Virus record (IMG/VR): IMGVR_UViG_3300013426_000016
Location: 96,001 to 160,000 of that record
DNA length: 64,000 nucleotides
Reading direction: 5' to 3' (one strand)
DNA from: a virus
Lineage: Duplodnaviria > Caudoviricetes
Made by a program: the position numbers and the translations under genes. Below the pieces are notes generated by a model. It saw only the letters and a program-made list of their open reading frames with translations. It was not told where the DNA came from and searched no databases. Of the stretch, positions 4,732 through 54,049 are shown piece after piece; within the stretch, counting starts at the first letter, position 1, and each line of letters starts with the position of its first letter.

Positions 4732-6612
4732 CTACCAATTTGTATTTGTAGGATCACTTAATTTTTCTTGTGCATACATAGCCTGTTGTCTGGCCACGTC
4801 TCTACCAGTAATATTAGTGTAATCAGTTTTAAATCTATACTCTGGATTATAAAGAGATGCTCCTATAACAGCATCAGAAATAGGTATATATACATTTGCT
4901 TTATAAAGATTCCTTTTAATAGCTCCACGTTTAAGCCCTAAGAAACCAGTTCCTATATCAGAGGTATTACGTTTATCAGCATTCTTGGCGTGATTAACAC
5001 TTCCATATTGTCCCATTTCTATATAGGCATCTAAAGAAGGCATATCGTCTTGTAGTAATTCATCAGCAGAAGCCATATAATCAGAAGGAGTAAAATCAAT
5101 AGCTTTAGAAGAAGCTACTCCCCCAAAAGTTAAGAAGGCTCTAGAACGGCTTTCTGGATATTTTACTAAACCAGTGCTTTCATCATATATAGCTCCAGGA
5201 CACACTTCTTGTAAATAACGATTTATAACAGAAGCATCTTCCCCTTTTTCTTTGCCGTTTTTAACTACGTTTTCTACCTTTTTAATTACTTCAAAATCTG
5301 GTATTACGTCTCTACCATTTTCTGCTGTTTTAGCAGGAAGTACAACTCTATACATATTAGAGCCATCATACATAATACCATCTAACTGGTTTCTATTAAT
5401 TACTTGGTCTCCAAAAACAACAGTGTCTGTGCCTACTTGTCTTATACCGTGAGCTTGCTCTAAGAGTTGTGCAACACTTACATTACTCATTGCTTGCCCT
5501 AAATTACCACTTCTATCATAAGCAACGGGACCCATATTTTGTCCATAAACAGATAAAGCAGTAGTAGACCCTCCTGTATATATAGGTATTCTTTGTGGTG
5601 CCGGTGCTCCTTCTCCAGTAGCATACATTTCTGGAACAGCCCCTTGTATTAATCCAGAGGCTCCACCTTCACTTCCGGAACCAGAAGTTCCACTTGCTTG
5701 TTTTTCATAAGAAGGCGTAATGGAACGCCCAGTACCATTAATAATAGTTTGTAAAAGAAATGCATGTGGATCAAATTTATTTACAGCAGCCTGTGCATAT
5801 AAATAACGTTTGTCCTTCTGAGGAAGAGCTGAAATTATATAATTTAAAGCAGTTTTAAGGTCCTTGTCTGCTTCTGTACCTTTTTCAGTAATTTTATAAA
5901 TACCATCCGGTCCTGTAGCAATTAAAGTAGAAGCATTATTTCCAGCCAAAGAAGAGTTTACTATTTCTTGCATTCCAGATAAAATATTCTTTCCTTGTTT
6001 TACAGCATATCCAGTAACCTCGGTTTCTTTATAATTTTTAATAATAGTATTTACATCACTTAAAACTGTGTCCATGCCGATAGCTCCAGAGACATCATCT
6101 AAAACACCATTATTAAAAGCTAAAGAAGAACTCTGTCTACGATAGTTTAATAAATCACCAAAAGTTAAAGGCATATATTTATTTGCATTCTTAGCATATT
6201 CTGTAGGAGAAATAGTAGTTAAACTCCCGTTTGCATCTACAGCATATAAGTTTCCAGCATTAGTAGTAGCAACTTCTCCCCAAGCATTATTTGTAGTCAG
6301 TGTTGCACGAGCTTTTTCATAATCTGCATAATTATTTGTAGCAGAAGTTGCCATTTGTGCAATACTTAAAAAATCTCTAGCGGTCAAATGATCTCCATTA
6401 GGATCACCAGCTAAATCTAAAGTCATTTGTATTTTATTCATTAACTGGCTCATGTCAGAGTCCAAACCTTTGGTTTTTAATAAATCAAATAAACTTTTTG
6501 TAAACTCAGAGGTTTTAGAAGAAGAGGCAGTATTTTGTTGTACTGCCTCTCCACTATTAGAACTCGTAGGAAGATATACTATACCTCCCGTCTGAAATGT
6601 TTTTATTTTCAT
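4732..6612 (-). CDS. Putative virion cargo/ejection protein (626 aa)
   Basis: Long ORF lying between two giant ORFs. N-terminal KTFQTGG motif. Ends TAG. Confidence 0.6.
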   Translation of the reverse strand: MKIKTFQTGGIVYLPTSSNSGEAVQQNTASSSKTSEFTKSLFDLLKTKGLDSDMSQLMNKIQMTLDLAGDPNGDHLTARDFLSIAQMATSATNNYADYEKARATLTTNNAWGEVATTNAGNLYAVDANGSLTTISPTEYAKNANKYMPLTFGDLLNYRRQSSSLAFNNGVLDDVSGAIGMDTVLSDVNTIIKNYKETEVTGYAVKQGKNILSGMQEIVNSSLAGNNASTLIATGPDGIYKITEKGTEADKDLKTALNYIISALPQKDKRYLYAQAAVNKFDPHAFLLQTIINGTGRSITPSYEKQASGTSGSGSEGGASGLIQGAVPEMYATGEGAPAPQRIPIYTGGSTTALSVYGQNMGPVAYDRSGNLGQAMSNVSVAQLLEQAHGIRQVGTDTVVFGDQVINRNQLDGIMYDGSNMYRVVLPAKTAENGRDVIPDFEVIKKVENVVKNGKEKGEDASVINRYLQEVCPGAIYDESTGLVKYPESRSRAFLTFGGVASSKAIDFTPSDYMASADELLQDDMPSLDAYIEMGQYGSVNHAKNADKRNTSDIGTGFLGLKRGAIKRNLYKANVYIPISDAVIGASLYNPEYRFKTDYTNITGRDVARQQAMYAQEKLSDPTNTNW

Positions 6613-28517: not shown

Positions 28518-31500
28518 CTACTTAAAGAAAGAATCACGTGTCTCTGAACCCATCATGATCACTGATCTATATGGGTTAAACACAGCCACGCTTGCATAGC
28601 CCCAGTCAATGTATTTAACGCCAGCTACAGGAGAGGAAACAACTCCTCCTTGGAGTCCTGTAGCTCCACCTCATTTTACATTTTAATTATTTCTAATTAA
28701 ATCAGACTATATCTTTATCCTATATTCTATTACCGTCTATAGGACATTTCCCGTTTCCATCATTTAGATGTACTCTACTCCATTACTTCTTTTAAGATTT
28801 GCTTAAAAGTACTGTTTCGATAGTCGTTGAACTTTCGGTAGAGCTTCGTAATACGCTTGCATATCCTACCGCTTAGCTGCTGATTATCCAATCTTTAACA
28901 TTTTCACCTTTTAGGTAGTTAAAGCTATAAGGAACTCCCAGCAATTAGAGAAATTATTTTTTCTTAGTATTACTACTAAGTGGCGCAAGTGGTTTAGTTT
29001 ACGCCATTTACAATGTTCTGGATCAAATCTCCACCCTTAAAGGTGAAGTAACCGAGTGCAGGACGGCCCGTAGCTGCATCAGCAGTAAGGTCGATGATTG
29101 CACCAAACGCACGGTTAGGGAACTCTACATCAAAGCTCCTATCAAGCTTAACAAGAAGTGTGTTCTTTATTATTAACTATAATTATTTCTAATTATACTA
29201 GACTATATCTTTAACTTTCTTCTTTTACCGTTGAAAGTCATTTCCTGTTTCCATTATTAAAAAATGTACTCTACTGATTCTTTTTTAATATTTCTTTAAA
29301 AAAGAAATTTTCGATAGTCGTTGAACTTTCCCCACGTATAAAAGATACAGAGGGGCTTAGCTGCTGATTGACCAATCTTTATAATTTTTAAGCATTCACA
29401 CCTAATGTTTCCATTTATGTTATAGCTTATAAAGCTTAAGGTTTTTCCAGCAATTAAGGAAATTTATTATAAATAGATTTCTCTATTTAGGTGGCAACAC
29501 ATTTTACCACCATACTCGTAAGCAGAATACGTAGCTCCGAGCTTAATGTAGCCATTCTTTTCTTTAGAGTACAGGAAGGCGTTGTCAGACTTGTGCTCTA
29601 CAACCCACTTACCCATTACACTCTGCCACTGATTATAGAAGAAAGTGTTGCACATTAAAATGTACGTATTCCCTTGTGCCTTCTCAGACTTAGCGGACAT
29701 GGCCATAAGAGCCTTCTCAAAATAATCAATGGTAAGTTTGTTAAATACAAACTTGGTAGCGAAACGCTCTACCTGCGGTATTACCAATTTGTTAATATAG
29801 CATTGTTTATATGCTATTTCTTATACTTTTATTCGCATAAGATCAGACTATATCTTCACCTATATAGGTGACTCTTGTTCGTGAAGTTATATTATTCTTC
29901 TGGAGACATTAGTTTATATTCAAACTCGGGAAGTATATAAGGCCTTAATAAAGAAGACCATTTTCTACCTTCTCTAGTTCTACATTTTAAATAATATCTA
30001 ATTTCTCCTTTTTTATTTAGTTTTTTAATCGGATAAAAATTTATATCATATTTCTCTTTAAAGAAATCTATAATATTTTGGGTGTCTTCTGGATTAGTCA
30101 TAGTATAAAAATAGAAAGAATGAGAACGGATTTTTTTAGTTCCTTTATAATAGTCTTTTGCATGACTACCATCATCCATCCATCATAGAGCAATTGCTTC
30201 TGGAGTTAAATAGTTTAGCATTTTTCTACTAAACCTCTTTTCTCCACTTTTATATATCCATTTATATAATATTCTAAAATACCTATGCCCTTTACTTATT
30301 TTATAGGTATCTTTTTTTATTCTATGATATATACTTGGAAGTTTTCCACCTAATAAGGTAACAAGTAAGTTAGCCTTATATTCAAGGTAACTTTTTTGCT
30401 TACTTCCATGCTCTATTTCTAAAGCAACACCACTGTGAGCATTTAAATGCCCATCTCCTAAAATTAATCCAATTAAAAGTGCTTTTTTTCGTTTATCCAT
30501 ATAAAATGATAGTAATTACAATAATATAACTCTAGTCGTTACACCTTCCTTATATAAGGCTTGGCTCGGTATTCTCATCGCAGAGTTCACCGAATTAAAG
30601 AGTTTTTGCATAACTGATTTCTCAGTTAAGCGGCATAAAGTTTACCGTCCGTAGAAATGAGCGGCCTACCAATCTCGTCATAGCGTTAGACTATATCTTA
30701 TTCTATAAAGACTGTATATCTGATGTATTTCCATAAAAATATCTTCATCTTAAATTCTTACAAGTTTTACTTTTACCTTCTATAACATTATAAATAGGCC
30801 CCGGAGTTATATTCATATACTCAGCAGCTTCTTTAACATTTGTAAAAGATTTTATAAACTTGCCTTCTAAAGTATAAGATGCACAAGCTGTATTTTTCTT
30901 AGAGGCTCTTAAAGCAAATCTTTTCTTATAACTTCAAAAATAACCTCCAGCCTGTATTTGTTTATCCACACAAACTGCAAATATAGATTTATATGAAATG
31001 CCAGTTTGTCTGTCAGCCTCATGTAAAGACTTGTAATAAGTTATATAATTTCCTTGTAAATCAAACTGATAAACAACTTTTTCTCTGTTTTTACAAGGAG
31101 ATATGCTTTCAGTACTTCCCGTGAAAAACCTTCACTGAAAATCTTTGCATTTCCTTTCTTTTAAGCAAGCATCTCCAATACCACTTTTAGAAATACCTGT
31201 TTCTCTGGAAGCTTCGGAAATAGAGTTTCAAGTTTTTATAAAGTTACCTTCCAAATCATACTGATTAACTTGTTTTTCACTTACAGAAGAAGGAACTTTT
31301 CCTCCTAAACAACTATTATAAACATCTTTTCTCTTTATAAATTCTCTATTTACCAATTCGGCTTCTTTCTTATATGCTGCTATTTTACCCTTCTCTGTAC
31401 CAGGAAATTCATATAAAGTTTCCCTTACAAAATTATTTATTCCATATTTAATAACAGCTTTCTGAAAAACAGTAGAGTGTTTTTGCTTTAAATCTCCTTT

Positions 31501-32845
31501 ACAGGAAATTCCACAGCCTATATAACCATCGAAATCATCAGAAAGAGTACCGTGTACTCCTATATATATTTTACCATTTATGGTATTTGTTGTCTTGTAT
31601 ACTATATATTTTAGCATTAGATCTGAACTTTTAGTCGTTGAACATTTTCCTCTATGAGGAACCTTTGCTGCTGATTATCTAAATATTATTTTTTTCAGAC
31701 TTTCACACTTACTAAAAAGTTATGTTGTAGTAAATAATATATAAAGAACTCCCAGCAATTTGAACAGTTTTTAACTATACATTACTGCATAGAAAGACCT
31801 ATGATTGATCTTGGGCTTCCCGTCAGCCGAAACGTTGCCCTTACCCCAGGTAAGAGAATTGTTACGAGCTTCCATGAAGTTGTCAAGACAATCCTTTTCA
31901 GCAGGATTCATCTTGTAAACATGATCAGTAGATTCGTTACCTTTACCTATCTTAATGAAAACATCTTCCATACCAGCGTACTTAGCAGACATATCCACAT
32001 CAACACGGTGAGTAGAAATATAAGTACGAGCCTTCTCTACGTTAGACTGAGCCTTTACGTAACCAGTCTCGTGAAGCTCCGGCTTAATGTTGGTAATCCA
32101 ACGAGTAGTAGCACCTACGAGGCTACCACCAAGCTTGTCAATAGTAGAAGAGTAATCGTTGTCGTTAATCTTAGCAACTACAAGCCAGCAGTTATCACGC
32201 AGACGCTGCGGAGTATTAACTACAATAAAGTGCTGACGAGTCTTCTCGATTACGAAAGTATCCTCTTTCTGGTAGTAATTTTCACTAAAATAGAACTTAA
32301 TATCACCAGCATTTGCACCATCTCCTTCTGGCTCAGCAATGAGCGGAAGACGCTTTACCTTGTTAACTACAATATCCCACTCAATAAGGAAAGAGTTAAC
32401 TGACTGGAAACCCTTCTTAGCCTTCTCCTGTGTGAAGGTGTTCATAAGAGCTTCAGTAAGGTGCGTAGCTGTGTATTGATCGTATAACGTAGATACGATT
32501 CCTAAACGTGCGGGATTCTCCGCTTGTTATCCTATAGGCTCTTTATCCTATAGTTCATATATTTTACCATCATATATGTTCAGACTATATCATCACTTAC
32601 GTGCCTGGCGCTCGTGTCTAGAAATTCTTATAAAGAACTCTAATTAGTCTTTGAACCTTTAAAACGATCACTCGTTAAACTTGGCTGCTGATTACCCTAT
32701 TATATGAGAATTTCATTTGGAGGGTTCCCAGCAGTTCACCAGGTTTTATTTGGGCGAGACTTTCACCCAAAAATTTAGAAAAGTCCTCATAAGTGCGCGT
32801 AGCTGGCATATTCGGACGTACGGTTGTAAAACCTGAAATTCTCAT
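28518..32845 (-). CDS. Major capsid protein, spliced (476 aa). Exons 32845-32765, 32520-31808, 30683-30644, 29784-29506, 29164-29001, 28671-28518
   Basis: Exons sum to 1431 nt in one frame: MRISGFTT...SKFLG|ENPARLG...GKPKI|YDEIGRPLISTDG|VIPQVERFA...YEYGG|NTLLVKLD...IVNGV|GGATG...FFK*. Every junction has a P1 U-G pair, a terminal G and a P10 pairing. Size and position fit a crAss-like MCP. Confidence 0.9.
28672..29000 (-). mobile_element. Group I intron 5 of capsid gene (329 nt, no ORF)
   Basis: P1 UGGCGU/GCGCCA; P10 CCACUU/AGGUGG. Core AAUUGCUGGGA, AAUCAGCAGC, GUUCAACGACUA, AAGAUAUAGUCU. Confidence 0.9.
29165..29505 (-). mobile_element. Group I intron 4 of capsid gene (341 nt, no ORF)
   Basis: P1 GGUGGU/GCCACC; P10 UGUGUU/AACACA. 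Full P/Q/R/S elements. Confidence 0.9.
29785..30643 (-). mobile_element. Group I intron 3 of capsid gene (859 nt, LAGLIDADG ORF)
   Basis: P1 CGGU/GCCG. Core AAUUCGGUGAA, AAUACCGAGC, GUGUAACGACUA, AAGAUAUAGUCU; terminal G at 29785. Confidence 0.9.
29892..30500 (-). CDS. Intron-encoded double-motif LAGLIDADG homing endonuclease (202 aa with TGA=Trp)
   Basis: LIGLILGDG and EAIAL-W(TGA)-WMDDG motifs; joins two track ORFs. Confidence 0.85.
30684..31807 (-). mobile_element. Group I intron 2 of capsid gene (1124 nt, GIY-YIG ORF, no visible P9)
   Basis: P1 AAGAU/GUCUU; P10 UCAUAG/CUAUGA. The ORF lies between the R and S elements. Ends AAGAUAUAGUCUAACG. Confidence 0.85.
30703..31617 (-). CDS. Intron-encoded GIY-YIG homing endonuclease with NUMOD1-type repeats (304 aa with TGA=Trp)
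   Basis: YIVYKTTN..NGKIYIGVH. Repeats of YDLEG.FIK..S..EA. TGAs at 31228, 31132, 30934 and 30745 give KT-W-NS, FQ-W-RF, GGYF-W-SY and LR-W-RY. Ends TAG. Confidence 0.85.
32521..32764 (-). mobile_element. Group I intron 1 of capsid gene (244 nt, no ORF)
   Basis: P1 UUGGGU/GCCCAA; P10 UCUC/GAGA; P3 CCUGG/CCAGG. Core AACUGCUGGGAA, AAUCAGCAGC, GUUCAAAGACUA, GAUAUAGUCU. Confidence 0.9.
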
Positions 32846-51629: not shown

Positions 51630-54049
51630 TATGCTTCTTTAATTTTATCATTATATGGGTTATTATCATTTAACTGAGCATACTCAAGTTCAGTTTGCTT
51701 TTCTTTATTTGCAGCAATTCTATCATTATAAGTTTTGTCATTAAATACTTTCTGAGTATCAAGATCAAGTCTCTTCTGCTCAAGAGCCAGCTTTTCAGAA
51801 CTATTCTTTTCAACTTCTTTCTGTAATTTATTATTATTATCAGTAAGAGAGTTAATTTGCTTAGAAGCCTCTTGTAATTGCTGTGACATTTCTTGTAATT
51901 TCTGTTGTAATTGCTGAATTATATTATTCTCTTTCTTCTTAGCAGAAACCGCAGAGTTAACATAACTCTTAAGTTCAGTAAGATTCTTAGCTGAAATAAT
52001 ATTAATCATCATTTCTGGATCAGCTTGTCCAGATTTTACAAGCTCTATACTTATTTGCTTAAGCTCATTAATCTTTTGGAAAACCTCTGTACTATCCTGT
52101 ATGTGTATATCAAAATCAGTCATAGTGTAATACTCAGGTAAAGTAGTATATATTTGGTTTAACTCTAAACCATTAATAAGAGTACCACAAATTCCTGTTT
52201 TAAAGGCTATTTTAGCTTGGTTTAACAAATCATAATTAACTTCTTTATAAAGAAGATCCATCGCTGAAAAATACTGCTTTGTAAGCAAAGTAGACTGTCT
52301 AATTCCTACTTTTACATTACTAACAGCATCTCTTTGTTGTATTCCTCCCAGTTTCTCTGCAAATACACCAGTAATAGAACTAGCTTGCTGCTCTATACTT
52401 TCTAGTACATACTGAAAAGCTTGTATACACTGAGCTTTAATAGTATCGTCATACCCATTAAAAGTAGTATTAATTAATTGGCTCCCTTCTTGTGAAGAGT
52501 CGAATAATGCTACTCCTTGTTTTTTATATGCCATCCACATTTGTACTCTATCCGGTAGTTCTTCGCCAAGATAAGTAGGTAAATGGGCAGCATCCAACCA
52601 ATCTCCAACAGTTCCAGAAGAAGCAATTAAACTATCCCTGTAGAAGATGGTAAGATCATATCTCGTTTTGTTCACGTAGTTTCGCTAAGACTACGCCGCT
52701 TTCGCTGCTGCATATTTCTATGCAGTCCAGACTATATCATAACATTTCTGTTTCCCGTGCTTCGTAACGCTTGTTACTATAATTAGTCGTTGAACCTTCC
52801 CCAAAAAAGGGCTCGGCTGCTGGTTGTCTTCGTCTTTTCTCGTTAAGAGTTCCCAGCAATTCTCGGGATTTACCCAGGACTAGATAAGTCAATCCTGCAA
52901 GTCCATAGTACTCAACATAATACTAAATGGCATTCCATTCTTATCTTCAAAGAAAATACCATTTATAGAAAGAGAACATTCTTTAGGATTACTAATACTT
53001 CTTATAACAGTTTTAGATTCTCCTCGTACTATGTATATTTCTCCTCCTATACGAACTCCTTCATGCCTATAAAGAGTACCCTCTTTATATTCAAGCCATT
53101 CACATTCGTAAACTTCCCAAACTTTAGCATTGGTAATTATTCTATCCTTATTTTGCATAGGATATACTTCCAAACCGCCTAAAATACCAGGAGCTTTTCT
53201 ACAGTCAAATTCTCCTTTCTCATTATATGGAGAGTATGCAACCGTAGTAACATAATGGTCAGTTAGTCTATTTGTCGAAGAACTTTCTTTTAAAATCTCT
53301 TTTGCTTCTGAAGAAAGTTCATCTCCAAACTCAGCAAGAATTTGTTCTCTATTTAAATATCTACGAATAACCGCTCTTGGAGATTTATTTAAATAATACT
53401 CATTAGGATTTCTTTCTATAAAGGTATCTAATGGATTTAATATCTCTAACTTAATAGCTCCATTTTCAGTTGCTTTCGTACGATAATAACAAACTCCAGA
53501 AATAAGAAGGTCTGTTAATAACTCCCTCATCTTATTTTTTAAATCTATATTTCTAGAGTTTTTAATATAATTTAAAATATTTTGTGCCGCTATCTCATAT
53601 TGAGAAACATAGTTTTTAGAAACATCTTCCTTAATTTGATTAATTTCTTCTTCATAATAAGGATCATTTACAGCACTCTTATTTTCTAAGAAGATTTGGA
53701 TTAAAGCATTTTTAAGTTTCGCTTTAAAGTGCTCTAAAACTGCGGCATCTATCTTTAATTGTTTGTCTCTCATTATATCTGAAACTGTCTTCCTGTCCTT
53801 ACAAGAGATCTGTAGTTCTGGATCGAGTTCCAAATACTCTCCCACTAAAACATCTATATGCTTCTTTATTAAAGGAGTAAATCCTATAGAAGTAGGAGTA
53901 CCGAGACCATAATTATCTTCTAGATGCTTGAACTGCTCTTTGTCTCTAGTACAGTGGTAGTAATTATAAGCTTTCCTTAATTGTACTTTATCATATACTA
54001 ATTCAGAAATACAAGCATTAATTTTTTCTATTTCTTTGTCTTTATTCAT
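51629..54049 (-). CDS. Portal protein, spliced (~730 aa). Exons 54049-52892 and 52663-51629
   Basis: KAYNYY, PLIKKHIDVLVGE and SSITGVFAEKLG.IQQRDAVSNV motifs. Junction MDLQD|RYDLTIF is in frame. Follows terminase. Confidence 0.85.
52664..52891 (-). mobile_element. Group I intron in portal gene (228 nt, no ORF)
   Basis: P1 CAGGAU/GUCCUG; P10 UAUCU/AGAUA. Core AAUUGCUGGGAA, AACCAGCAGC, GUUCAACGACUA, GAUAUAGUCU. Confidence 0.9.

Follow-up and report, generated by a model that had tools for sequence, protein, structure and literature searches.

Sequence comparison points to loss of P9 and P9.0, derived and since maintained, in a mobile group I intron of a phage major capsid gene

The window, that is, the whole 64-kb stretch of DNA analysed here, belongs to a virus record of 203,856 nt and contains the major capsid gene (Pfam Crass_capsid), located on the minus strand from 32845 to 28519 and divided into six exons. 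Once spliced, the exons encode 475 residues that are colinear with homologs lacking introns; the gene is the only capsid gene of the genome, where a second copy was searched for and none was found. Six group I introns had been counted previously, a correct total if not all are assigned to this gene: five interrupt it, whereas the sixth lies in a different gene near 52.7 kb. In the intron ORFs TGA codes for Trp, and the genome carries a tRNA with a UCA anticodon. These traits agree with those of the crAss-like phages, rich in introns and recoded, that Yutin et al. describe (PMC7886860), and genome size, recoding and intron load would suit the Zeta group of the Crassvirales. A search of solved structures with the sequence of exon 2 gave no match. 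The features in and around intron 2 are the following, where L133 and L134 are relatives with the same intron end and L112 is a same-site ortholog that has P9.

31808-32520, minus strand: capsid exon 2 (Pfam Crass_capsid), whose end forms the 5' strand of P1 and supplies, at 31808, the U of the U-G pair
30684-31807, minus strand: the 1124-nt group I intron 2 of the capsid gene, lacking both P9 and P9.0
31799-31804, minus strand: 5' strand of P10, pairing over 6 bp with the first bases of exon 3; conserved in L112, L133 and L134
31793-31798, minus strand: internal guide sequence (3' strand of P1, 5 bp), with G31798 pairing to the splice-site U
31775-31792, minus strand: P2 hairpin, GUAA tetraloop (GUGA in the P9-containing orthologs)
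31761-31767, minus strand: 5' strand of P3, from covariation among 17 family members
31640-31760, minus strand: P4-P5-P6 domain with P5 extension, folding in three lineages, P5 start CU:AG
31632-31638, minus strand: 5' strand of P7 (guanosine-binding site), from its motif
31623-31629, minus strand: 3' strand of P3, 2 nt past the P7 5' strand, from covariation
31618-31621, minus strand: 5' strand of P8, 4 bp, the weakest P8 of the 17 family members
30703-31617, minus strand: 304-aa homing endonuclease gene lodged in L8, with four TGA codons read as Trp and NUMOD1 repeats
30688-30699, minus strand: J8/7 and 3' strand of P7, including the closing U at 30688, from their motif
30685-30687, minus strand: 3-nt linker, AAC here and ACC in L133, that replaces P9.0 and P9, from sequence comparison
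30684, minus strand: terminal (omega) G, from the exon join and P10
30644-30683, minus strand: capsid exon 3, 40 nt, coding
29785-30643, minus strand: intron 3, with a LAGLIDADG_2 ORF and P9

The earlier note had given intron 2 as 30644-31807; its start is retained, and the end is moved to 30684 because exon 3 had been wrongly included. The intron displays the P3-P7 pseudoknot, the guanosine-binding pair, the J8/7 motif, P4-P5-P6, P8, the terminal G and P10. Both P7 strands are canonical and the first three pairs of P3 covary across 17 relatives. What it lacks of the group I architecture is the P9 and P9.0 of the P3-P9 domain, an absence that leaves its membership of the group intact but makes it non-canonical. 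Rfam model RF00028 matches partially (31767-31623, E 3e-6, 38.4 bits), with a score under the gathering threshold because the ORF in L8 splits the model. P7.1 and P7.2, typical of subgroup IA (T4 td and Twort type), are absent, with only 2 nt between the P7 5' strand and the P3 3' strand. With regard to subgroups IB4 and IC3, the intron has a P2 with a GNRA loop and a P5 extension. P1 has 6 bp in L133 and L134, one more than in intron 2, and P3 contains two U-U mismatches throughout the family. An alternative P3 3' strand within the last endonuclease codons was rejected, since L133 disrupts it and relatives do not conserve it, in favor of the covarying strand 2 nt beyond P7; this position places the endonuclease ORF in L8. 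A helix between the linker and the GUUA that follows P2 was likewise discarded, as the A-to-C change of L133 breaks it and no covariation is seen.

At the intron's 3' end, J8/7 reads AAGAUA (30699-30694) and the P7 3' strand UAGUC (30693-30689), followed by UAAC (30688-30685), the terminal G and, from 30683, exon 3. Given that UAAC alone separates the P7 3' strand from the terminal G, neither P9 nor P9.0 can form, which confirms the earlier claim of a missing P9. The same claim had counted 4 nt before the terminal G; the four letters are there, but the first U probably closes P7 and the free linker would therefore be 3 nt. The position of this U, paired with the A that precedes the P7 bulge, forms an A-U pair in 49 of 51 cores and a G-C pair once. 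The other five introns, four in the capsid gene and the one at 52.7 kb, do have a hairpin after P7, as previously described. The description of intron 2 as a minimal ribozyme variant is apt for this 3' end and not for the rest, which comprises a full-size core, the P5 extension and a 304-codon endonuclease.

The 3' splice site is fixed by three lines of sequence evidence. UCAUAG (31804-31799) pairs perfectly over 6 bp with the CUAUGA of exon 3, and no in-frame alternative G in the next 120 nt has a P10 longer than 1 bp. The AU/C codon split across the junction gives KPKI-YDEIGRPLISTDG, and the junction product KPKI-YDEIGRP aligns without gaps to L008, L151 and other homologs that have no intron, so that the assignment made earlier from P10 and the split codon holds. 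Exon 3, in turn, shows six synonymous codon changes and one non-synonymous change relative to L133, as would be expected of a segment conserved as protein under purifying selection. Read-through of the unspliced intron meets a stop after 12 intron codons, and skipping of exon 3 produces a frameshift and an immediate stop. In agreement with the earlier presumption that intron 2, lying in an essential gene, is spliced, the sole capsid copy, the read-through stop and the selection acting on the core make splicing of intron 2 very probable.

The endonuclease ORF, whose stop codon lies inside the 3' strand of P8, matches the PHROG 314 homing endonuclease (E 1e-26) and NUMOD1, and from its motif and BLAST neighbours we read its N-terminus as GIY-YIG-like. 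Relative to L133 it has accumulated 85 synonymous and 33 non-synonymous codon changes, indicating purifying selection, and with this intact ORF in a peripheral loop the intron resembles mobile homing introns. Divergence of intron and exons runs parallel over three lineages, in agreement with vertical descent. The same endonuclease family occurs at many other capsid sites, every time with P9 present. In strain L187, whose exon 2 differs at 4 of 580 nt, intron 2 is absent and a P9-containing intron is found 5 nt upstream instead.

Contigs from three sequencing runs, with a fourth borderline and all from one study, cover the end of intron 2 with no indels, and one of the spanning contigs represents a different strain. 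The short end is common to 12 other assemblies from three lineages: nine near-identical ones (~100% identity, L124-L132), two at ~94% (L134, L135) and one at 84% (L133), in which the tail is UACC, equal in length to UAAC. L133 has no intron 3, so intron 2 does not require this neighbour. When its intron 2 is compared with ours, 83 of 83 core columns are identical, whereas third codon positions differ by 31% in the endonuclease and 39-41% in the exons, and the helix of the P5 extension is retained although its sequence has changed. Such a pattern indicates strong purifying selection on the core, and a core that is invariant despite this third-position divergence constitutes the main evidence that the RNA still works without P9.

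The earlier note had proposed inspecting homologous introns at the same site, and these place the loss in an evolutionary frame. Besides the 12 P9-less assemblies, the orthologs L110 and L112-L122 (site KPKI/YD) are ~67% identical and carry a P9 capped by a GAAA loop. Since these orthologs and the capsid-intron family keep P9, its loss is derived, and it preceded the split from L133. Among 47 distinct capsid-intron tails surveyed, limited to confident or hand-checked rows because the automated splice-site parser is noisy near short exons, the length is 27-68 nt and nearly all have a P9 hairpin, while the tail of intron 2 measures 5 nt. IMG/VR pattern searches for further same-site introns without P9 returned only chance matches or P9-containing introns. 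The strong P10 predates the loss, as L112, with its P9, has the same 6-bp P10; P10 would therefore have permitted the deletion rather than evolved as a repair. P10 spans 5-8 bp in the three P9-less lineages checked and reaches at least 5 bp in 13 of 38 P9-containing capsid introns, a crude count, so a link between P9 loss and a stronger P10 is suggestive only. The start of P5 changed from CC:GG in the same-site orthologs to CU:AG in the intron 2 lineage, which we do not count as a signature of the loss because CU:AG also occurs in several introns with P9. The orthologs share with intron 2 its site, P1, the tandem U-U of P3 and the L8 endonuclease family, and differ in their GAAA-loop P9, their CC:GG and their longer P8. 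The absence of P9 and P9.0 is thus real, derived and maintained, an extreme case within an otherwise canonical mobile group I intron.

In group I structures P7 is stacked upon by P9.0, and the partner of the first base past P7 is followed by the terminal G. A linker of 3 nt would therefore cover about the span of a triloop and would be near the minimum. We consider it most likely that intron 2 continues to splice with a 3' end close to the shortest that is possible, and that it probably does so in cis through P10 and a 3-nt tether to the terminal G, in a lineage that deleted the whole P9 region. Judging from the intact core, the first step would be ordinary, with P1 presenting the U-G pair and a free guanosine bound in P7 attacking it. 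In the second step the terminal G, tethered 3 nt past P7, would reach the G site without P9.0, which may be dispensable because the tether itself holds this G 3 nt from the end of P7, while the 6-bp P10 would align exon 3 and fix the register. Tether and P10 are both visible in the sequence; their use in splicing is what we infer. In line with this proposal, the second step is stated in PMC11417360 to survive the loss of P9.0 or P10 singly and to fail without both. Against it, the same source reports a yield of <4% when an unstructured segment replaces P9.0 and the ends are untethered. With the L9-P5 brace lost, folding would rely on the core, a contact between the L2 tetraloop and P8, and the P5 extension; stability is probably reduced, and cellular conditions or general RNA chaperones may compensate. 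In Azoarcus ribozymes the L9-P5 contact is stabilising but activity does not require it: mutants of this contact still fold and work in 15 mM Mg, with crowding making up for the mutation (PMC4333387). Redundancy was thus already known from single-contact mutants, and these experiments remove individual contacts, not the entire P9 region.

Several features speak against fully autonomous splicing: the U-U mismatches of P3, the 4-bp P8, and a local hairpin (-2.2 kcal/mol) that the start of exon 3 can form with the J8/7-P7 strand in competition with P7 and P10. They would be accounted for if intron 2 needed a dedicated protein in place of the P9-P5 brace, be it the intron's own endonuclease working as a maturase or some factor from the phage or the host, an explanation that we regard as unlikely but worth attention. 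For bacterial and phage introns both maturases and chaperones are known (PMC3984707), and the purifying selection on the endonuclease would fit such a role, although homing explains it equally well. The recurrence of P9 loss in intron-rich phages is also what would be expected if a shared factor relaxed selection; against this, the other capsid introns of the genome retain P9. Moreover, a search of the phage genome revealed no known splicing-factor family, with no match to TyrRS/TrpRS-like, CRM/YhbY or H-NS/StpA proteins and only a sub-threshold DEAD match; a host factor or one of a new family may still act.

That the intron is crippled or barely active, with poor splicing tolerated or a downstream 3' site used together with an exon-formed P9, seems to us quite improbable. 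A near-universal element is missing and, given the different intron of the near-identical strain L187, the intron 2 allele can be replaced. However, the core has stayed invariant over a long divergence, exon 3 is conserved as protein with no alternative in-frame G supported by P10, and 53 contigs on record carry the exon-2 product that belongs to the intron-bearing form. Cooperation and exon skipping are documented for tandem group I introns (PMC10136302), and intron 3 lies only 40 nt away, which had led to the suggestion that it assists intron 2. A surrogate P9 or a cooperative fold supplied by intron 3 or exon 3 is nonetheless hardly credible: L133 has the same short end in the absence of intron 3, exon 3 skipping is out of frame, and a three-lineage consensus fold of the 3' end with exon 3 yields neither a GNRA hairpin nor a compensatory change. 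Collapse of P9 during assembly, conceivable for a short region in a genome with many similar intron ends, is practically negligible, as separate-run contigs cross the site gap-free and the 12 other assemblies, from several studies and assemblers, have the same length, one of them with a substitution in the linker; L133 and L134 already refute this reading.

Splicing in cis through the tether and P10 can be set beside published systems. Group I introns in capsid genes of the Delta and Zeta groups of Crassvirales were found through protein domains (PMC7886860), and our phage shares with those of Yutin et al. 2021 the intron-split capsid gene, the endonuclease ORFs, the TGA recoding and a 204-kb genome; intron RNA structure is not given in the portion of that paper considered here, and the 5-nt tail sets intron 2 apart. 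Reviews place P9 within the catalytic P3-P9 domain (PMC3984707). A literature search for natural P9 absence, with most older subscription papers outside its scope, returned only the mitochondrial Pr.rnl.1 of Prasinoderma coloniale, spliced as judged by RT-PCR, in a work where P9 is called essential and accessory factors are expected (Pombert et al. 2013, PMC3873408). Like intron 2, Pr.rnl.1 has too few 3' nucleotides for P9, same-site relatives with P9, and a split or ORF in L8. In contrast, it interrupts an rRNA and is trans-spliced, which makes this exception ambiguous since a third piece could supply P9, whereas intron 2 is contiguous, acts in cis in an mRNA and encodes an intact endonuclease. 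Intron 2 would thus offer a complete P9 loss, in cis, in an essential gene and kept under selection, with natural controls in the same-site P9-containing orthologs and the relative devoid of intron 3, so that the role of P9 is directly testable by a 30-nt swap. Introns of this kind are missed by whole-intron models used in annotation. For compact ribozymes intended for RNA circularisation, the spacing from P9.0 to the terminal G figures as a design variable (PMC11417360).

Loss of P9 is not unique to intron 2, and among phage introns a reduced P9 appears to be a recurrent condition. The introns L189, L192 and L195, from IMG/VR contigs and inserted at the Walker A motif of an AAA_24 (Sak4-like) gene, have the identical UAAC-G end and no P9, and L352, at the same site, lacks P9 with a 6-nt linker. 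Their P10 is 5 and 8 bp long, and in both types splicing would restore GxPKxGKTT. They differ from intron 2 in host gene and in endonuclease, lack P2 and carry extra sequence inserted between P7 and P3, and their loss of P9 is independent. Their frequency is a biased estimate because the search pattern was built on the tail of intron 2. Of the nine IMG/VR matches to this pattern, L193, L194 and L197 were set aside for having a normal P9, L196 for a hairpin directly after P7 and a missing 5' end, and L190 for splicing 12 nt farther on; in bacterial genomes the pattern gave at least 120 matches, and among the matches listed none had an intron core by the motif filter. It is possible, and we offer it as a tentative idea only, that the UA(A/C)C-G end after P7 is a recurrent minimal 3' module of naturally P9-less, protein-independent group I ribozymes, its linker, at the geometric minimum, delivering the terminal G to the binding site; two or more unrelated phage intron lineages would have arrived at it independently, in which case P9 would be optional for self-splicing and not part of the core. 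Elsewhere, L111 has a P9-less capsid intron at a different site, and the tails of L182 and L190 are reduced.

A close strain (related loci L187 and L188, about 735-1910) lacks intron 2, the P9-less group I intron of the window's major capsid gene, and its exon 2 differs at 4 of 580 nt. This strain carries a different, P9-containing intron inserted 5 nt upstream (GKP|KI), which encodes an endonuclease of the same family as that of intron 2. Given that intron 2 and the GKP|KI intron were never found together in the loci examined, we suggest that they are competing, mutually exclusive alleles. Within the window (30676-30699, minus strand), a local hairpin can arise when the five bases that open exon 3 pair with J8/7-P7. 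This hairpin would block both P7 and P10, the guide-exon pairing at the 3' splice site, and may possibly represent a folding trap or a switch produced by the deletion of P9.

Reduced 3' ends are also displayed by other capsid introns. At the G|ANP site, locus L111 (2932-3117; the same in L183) harbors an ORF-less intron of 186 nt with a degenerate P5, a P10 of 6 bp and a linker of 9 nt between the P7 3' strand and the terminal nucleotide; its P9 hairpin is absent, whereas intron 1 of the window, located at the same site, has two 3' hairpins. In the sister of the L111 intron, found in locus L182 near 5790-6010, a 5-bp hairpin abuts P7, and a terminal A rather than G seems to be needed to maintain the capsid frame. 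The same locus carries at the capsid site H|EEG an intron of 1019 nt, with a 12-nt linker, a degenerate P5 and a P9 reduced to, at most, a 3-bp stump.

Outside the capsid gene, P9-less introns split an AAA_24 ATPase gene within its Walker A motif in four loci (L189 4450-5416, minus strand; L192; L195; L352). Their linker is either AAC, identical to that of intron 2, or 6 nt long, and P2 seems to be absent as well. A DnaB-like helicase gene (L190, about 1635-1997) carries a 362-nt intron with an unstructured linker of 15 nt and a P10 of 5 bp. The window itself contains an ORF-less group I intron in a non-capsid gene (about 52650-52890, minus strand), with P9 and additional 3' hairpins, which gave no Rfam match at the gathering setting and was detected in the E-value run.

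The close strains L126 and L129 possess a sixth capsid intron near residue 319, absent from the window, showing a normal P9 and an endonuclease of the intron 2 family. Beyond the window, the genome that contains it (G000 C1 38494-38568) encodes a tRNA with a UCA anticodon, labeled SeC by ARAGORN, which is more likely the suppressor reading TGA as Trp that the intron endonucleases require.
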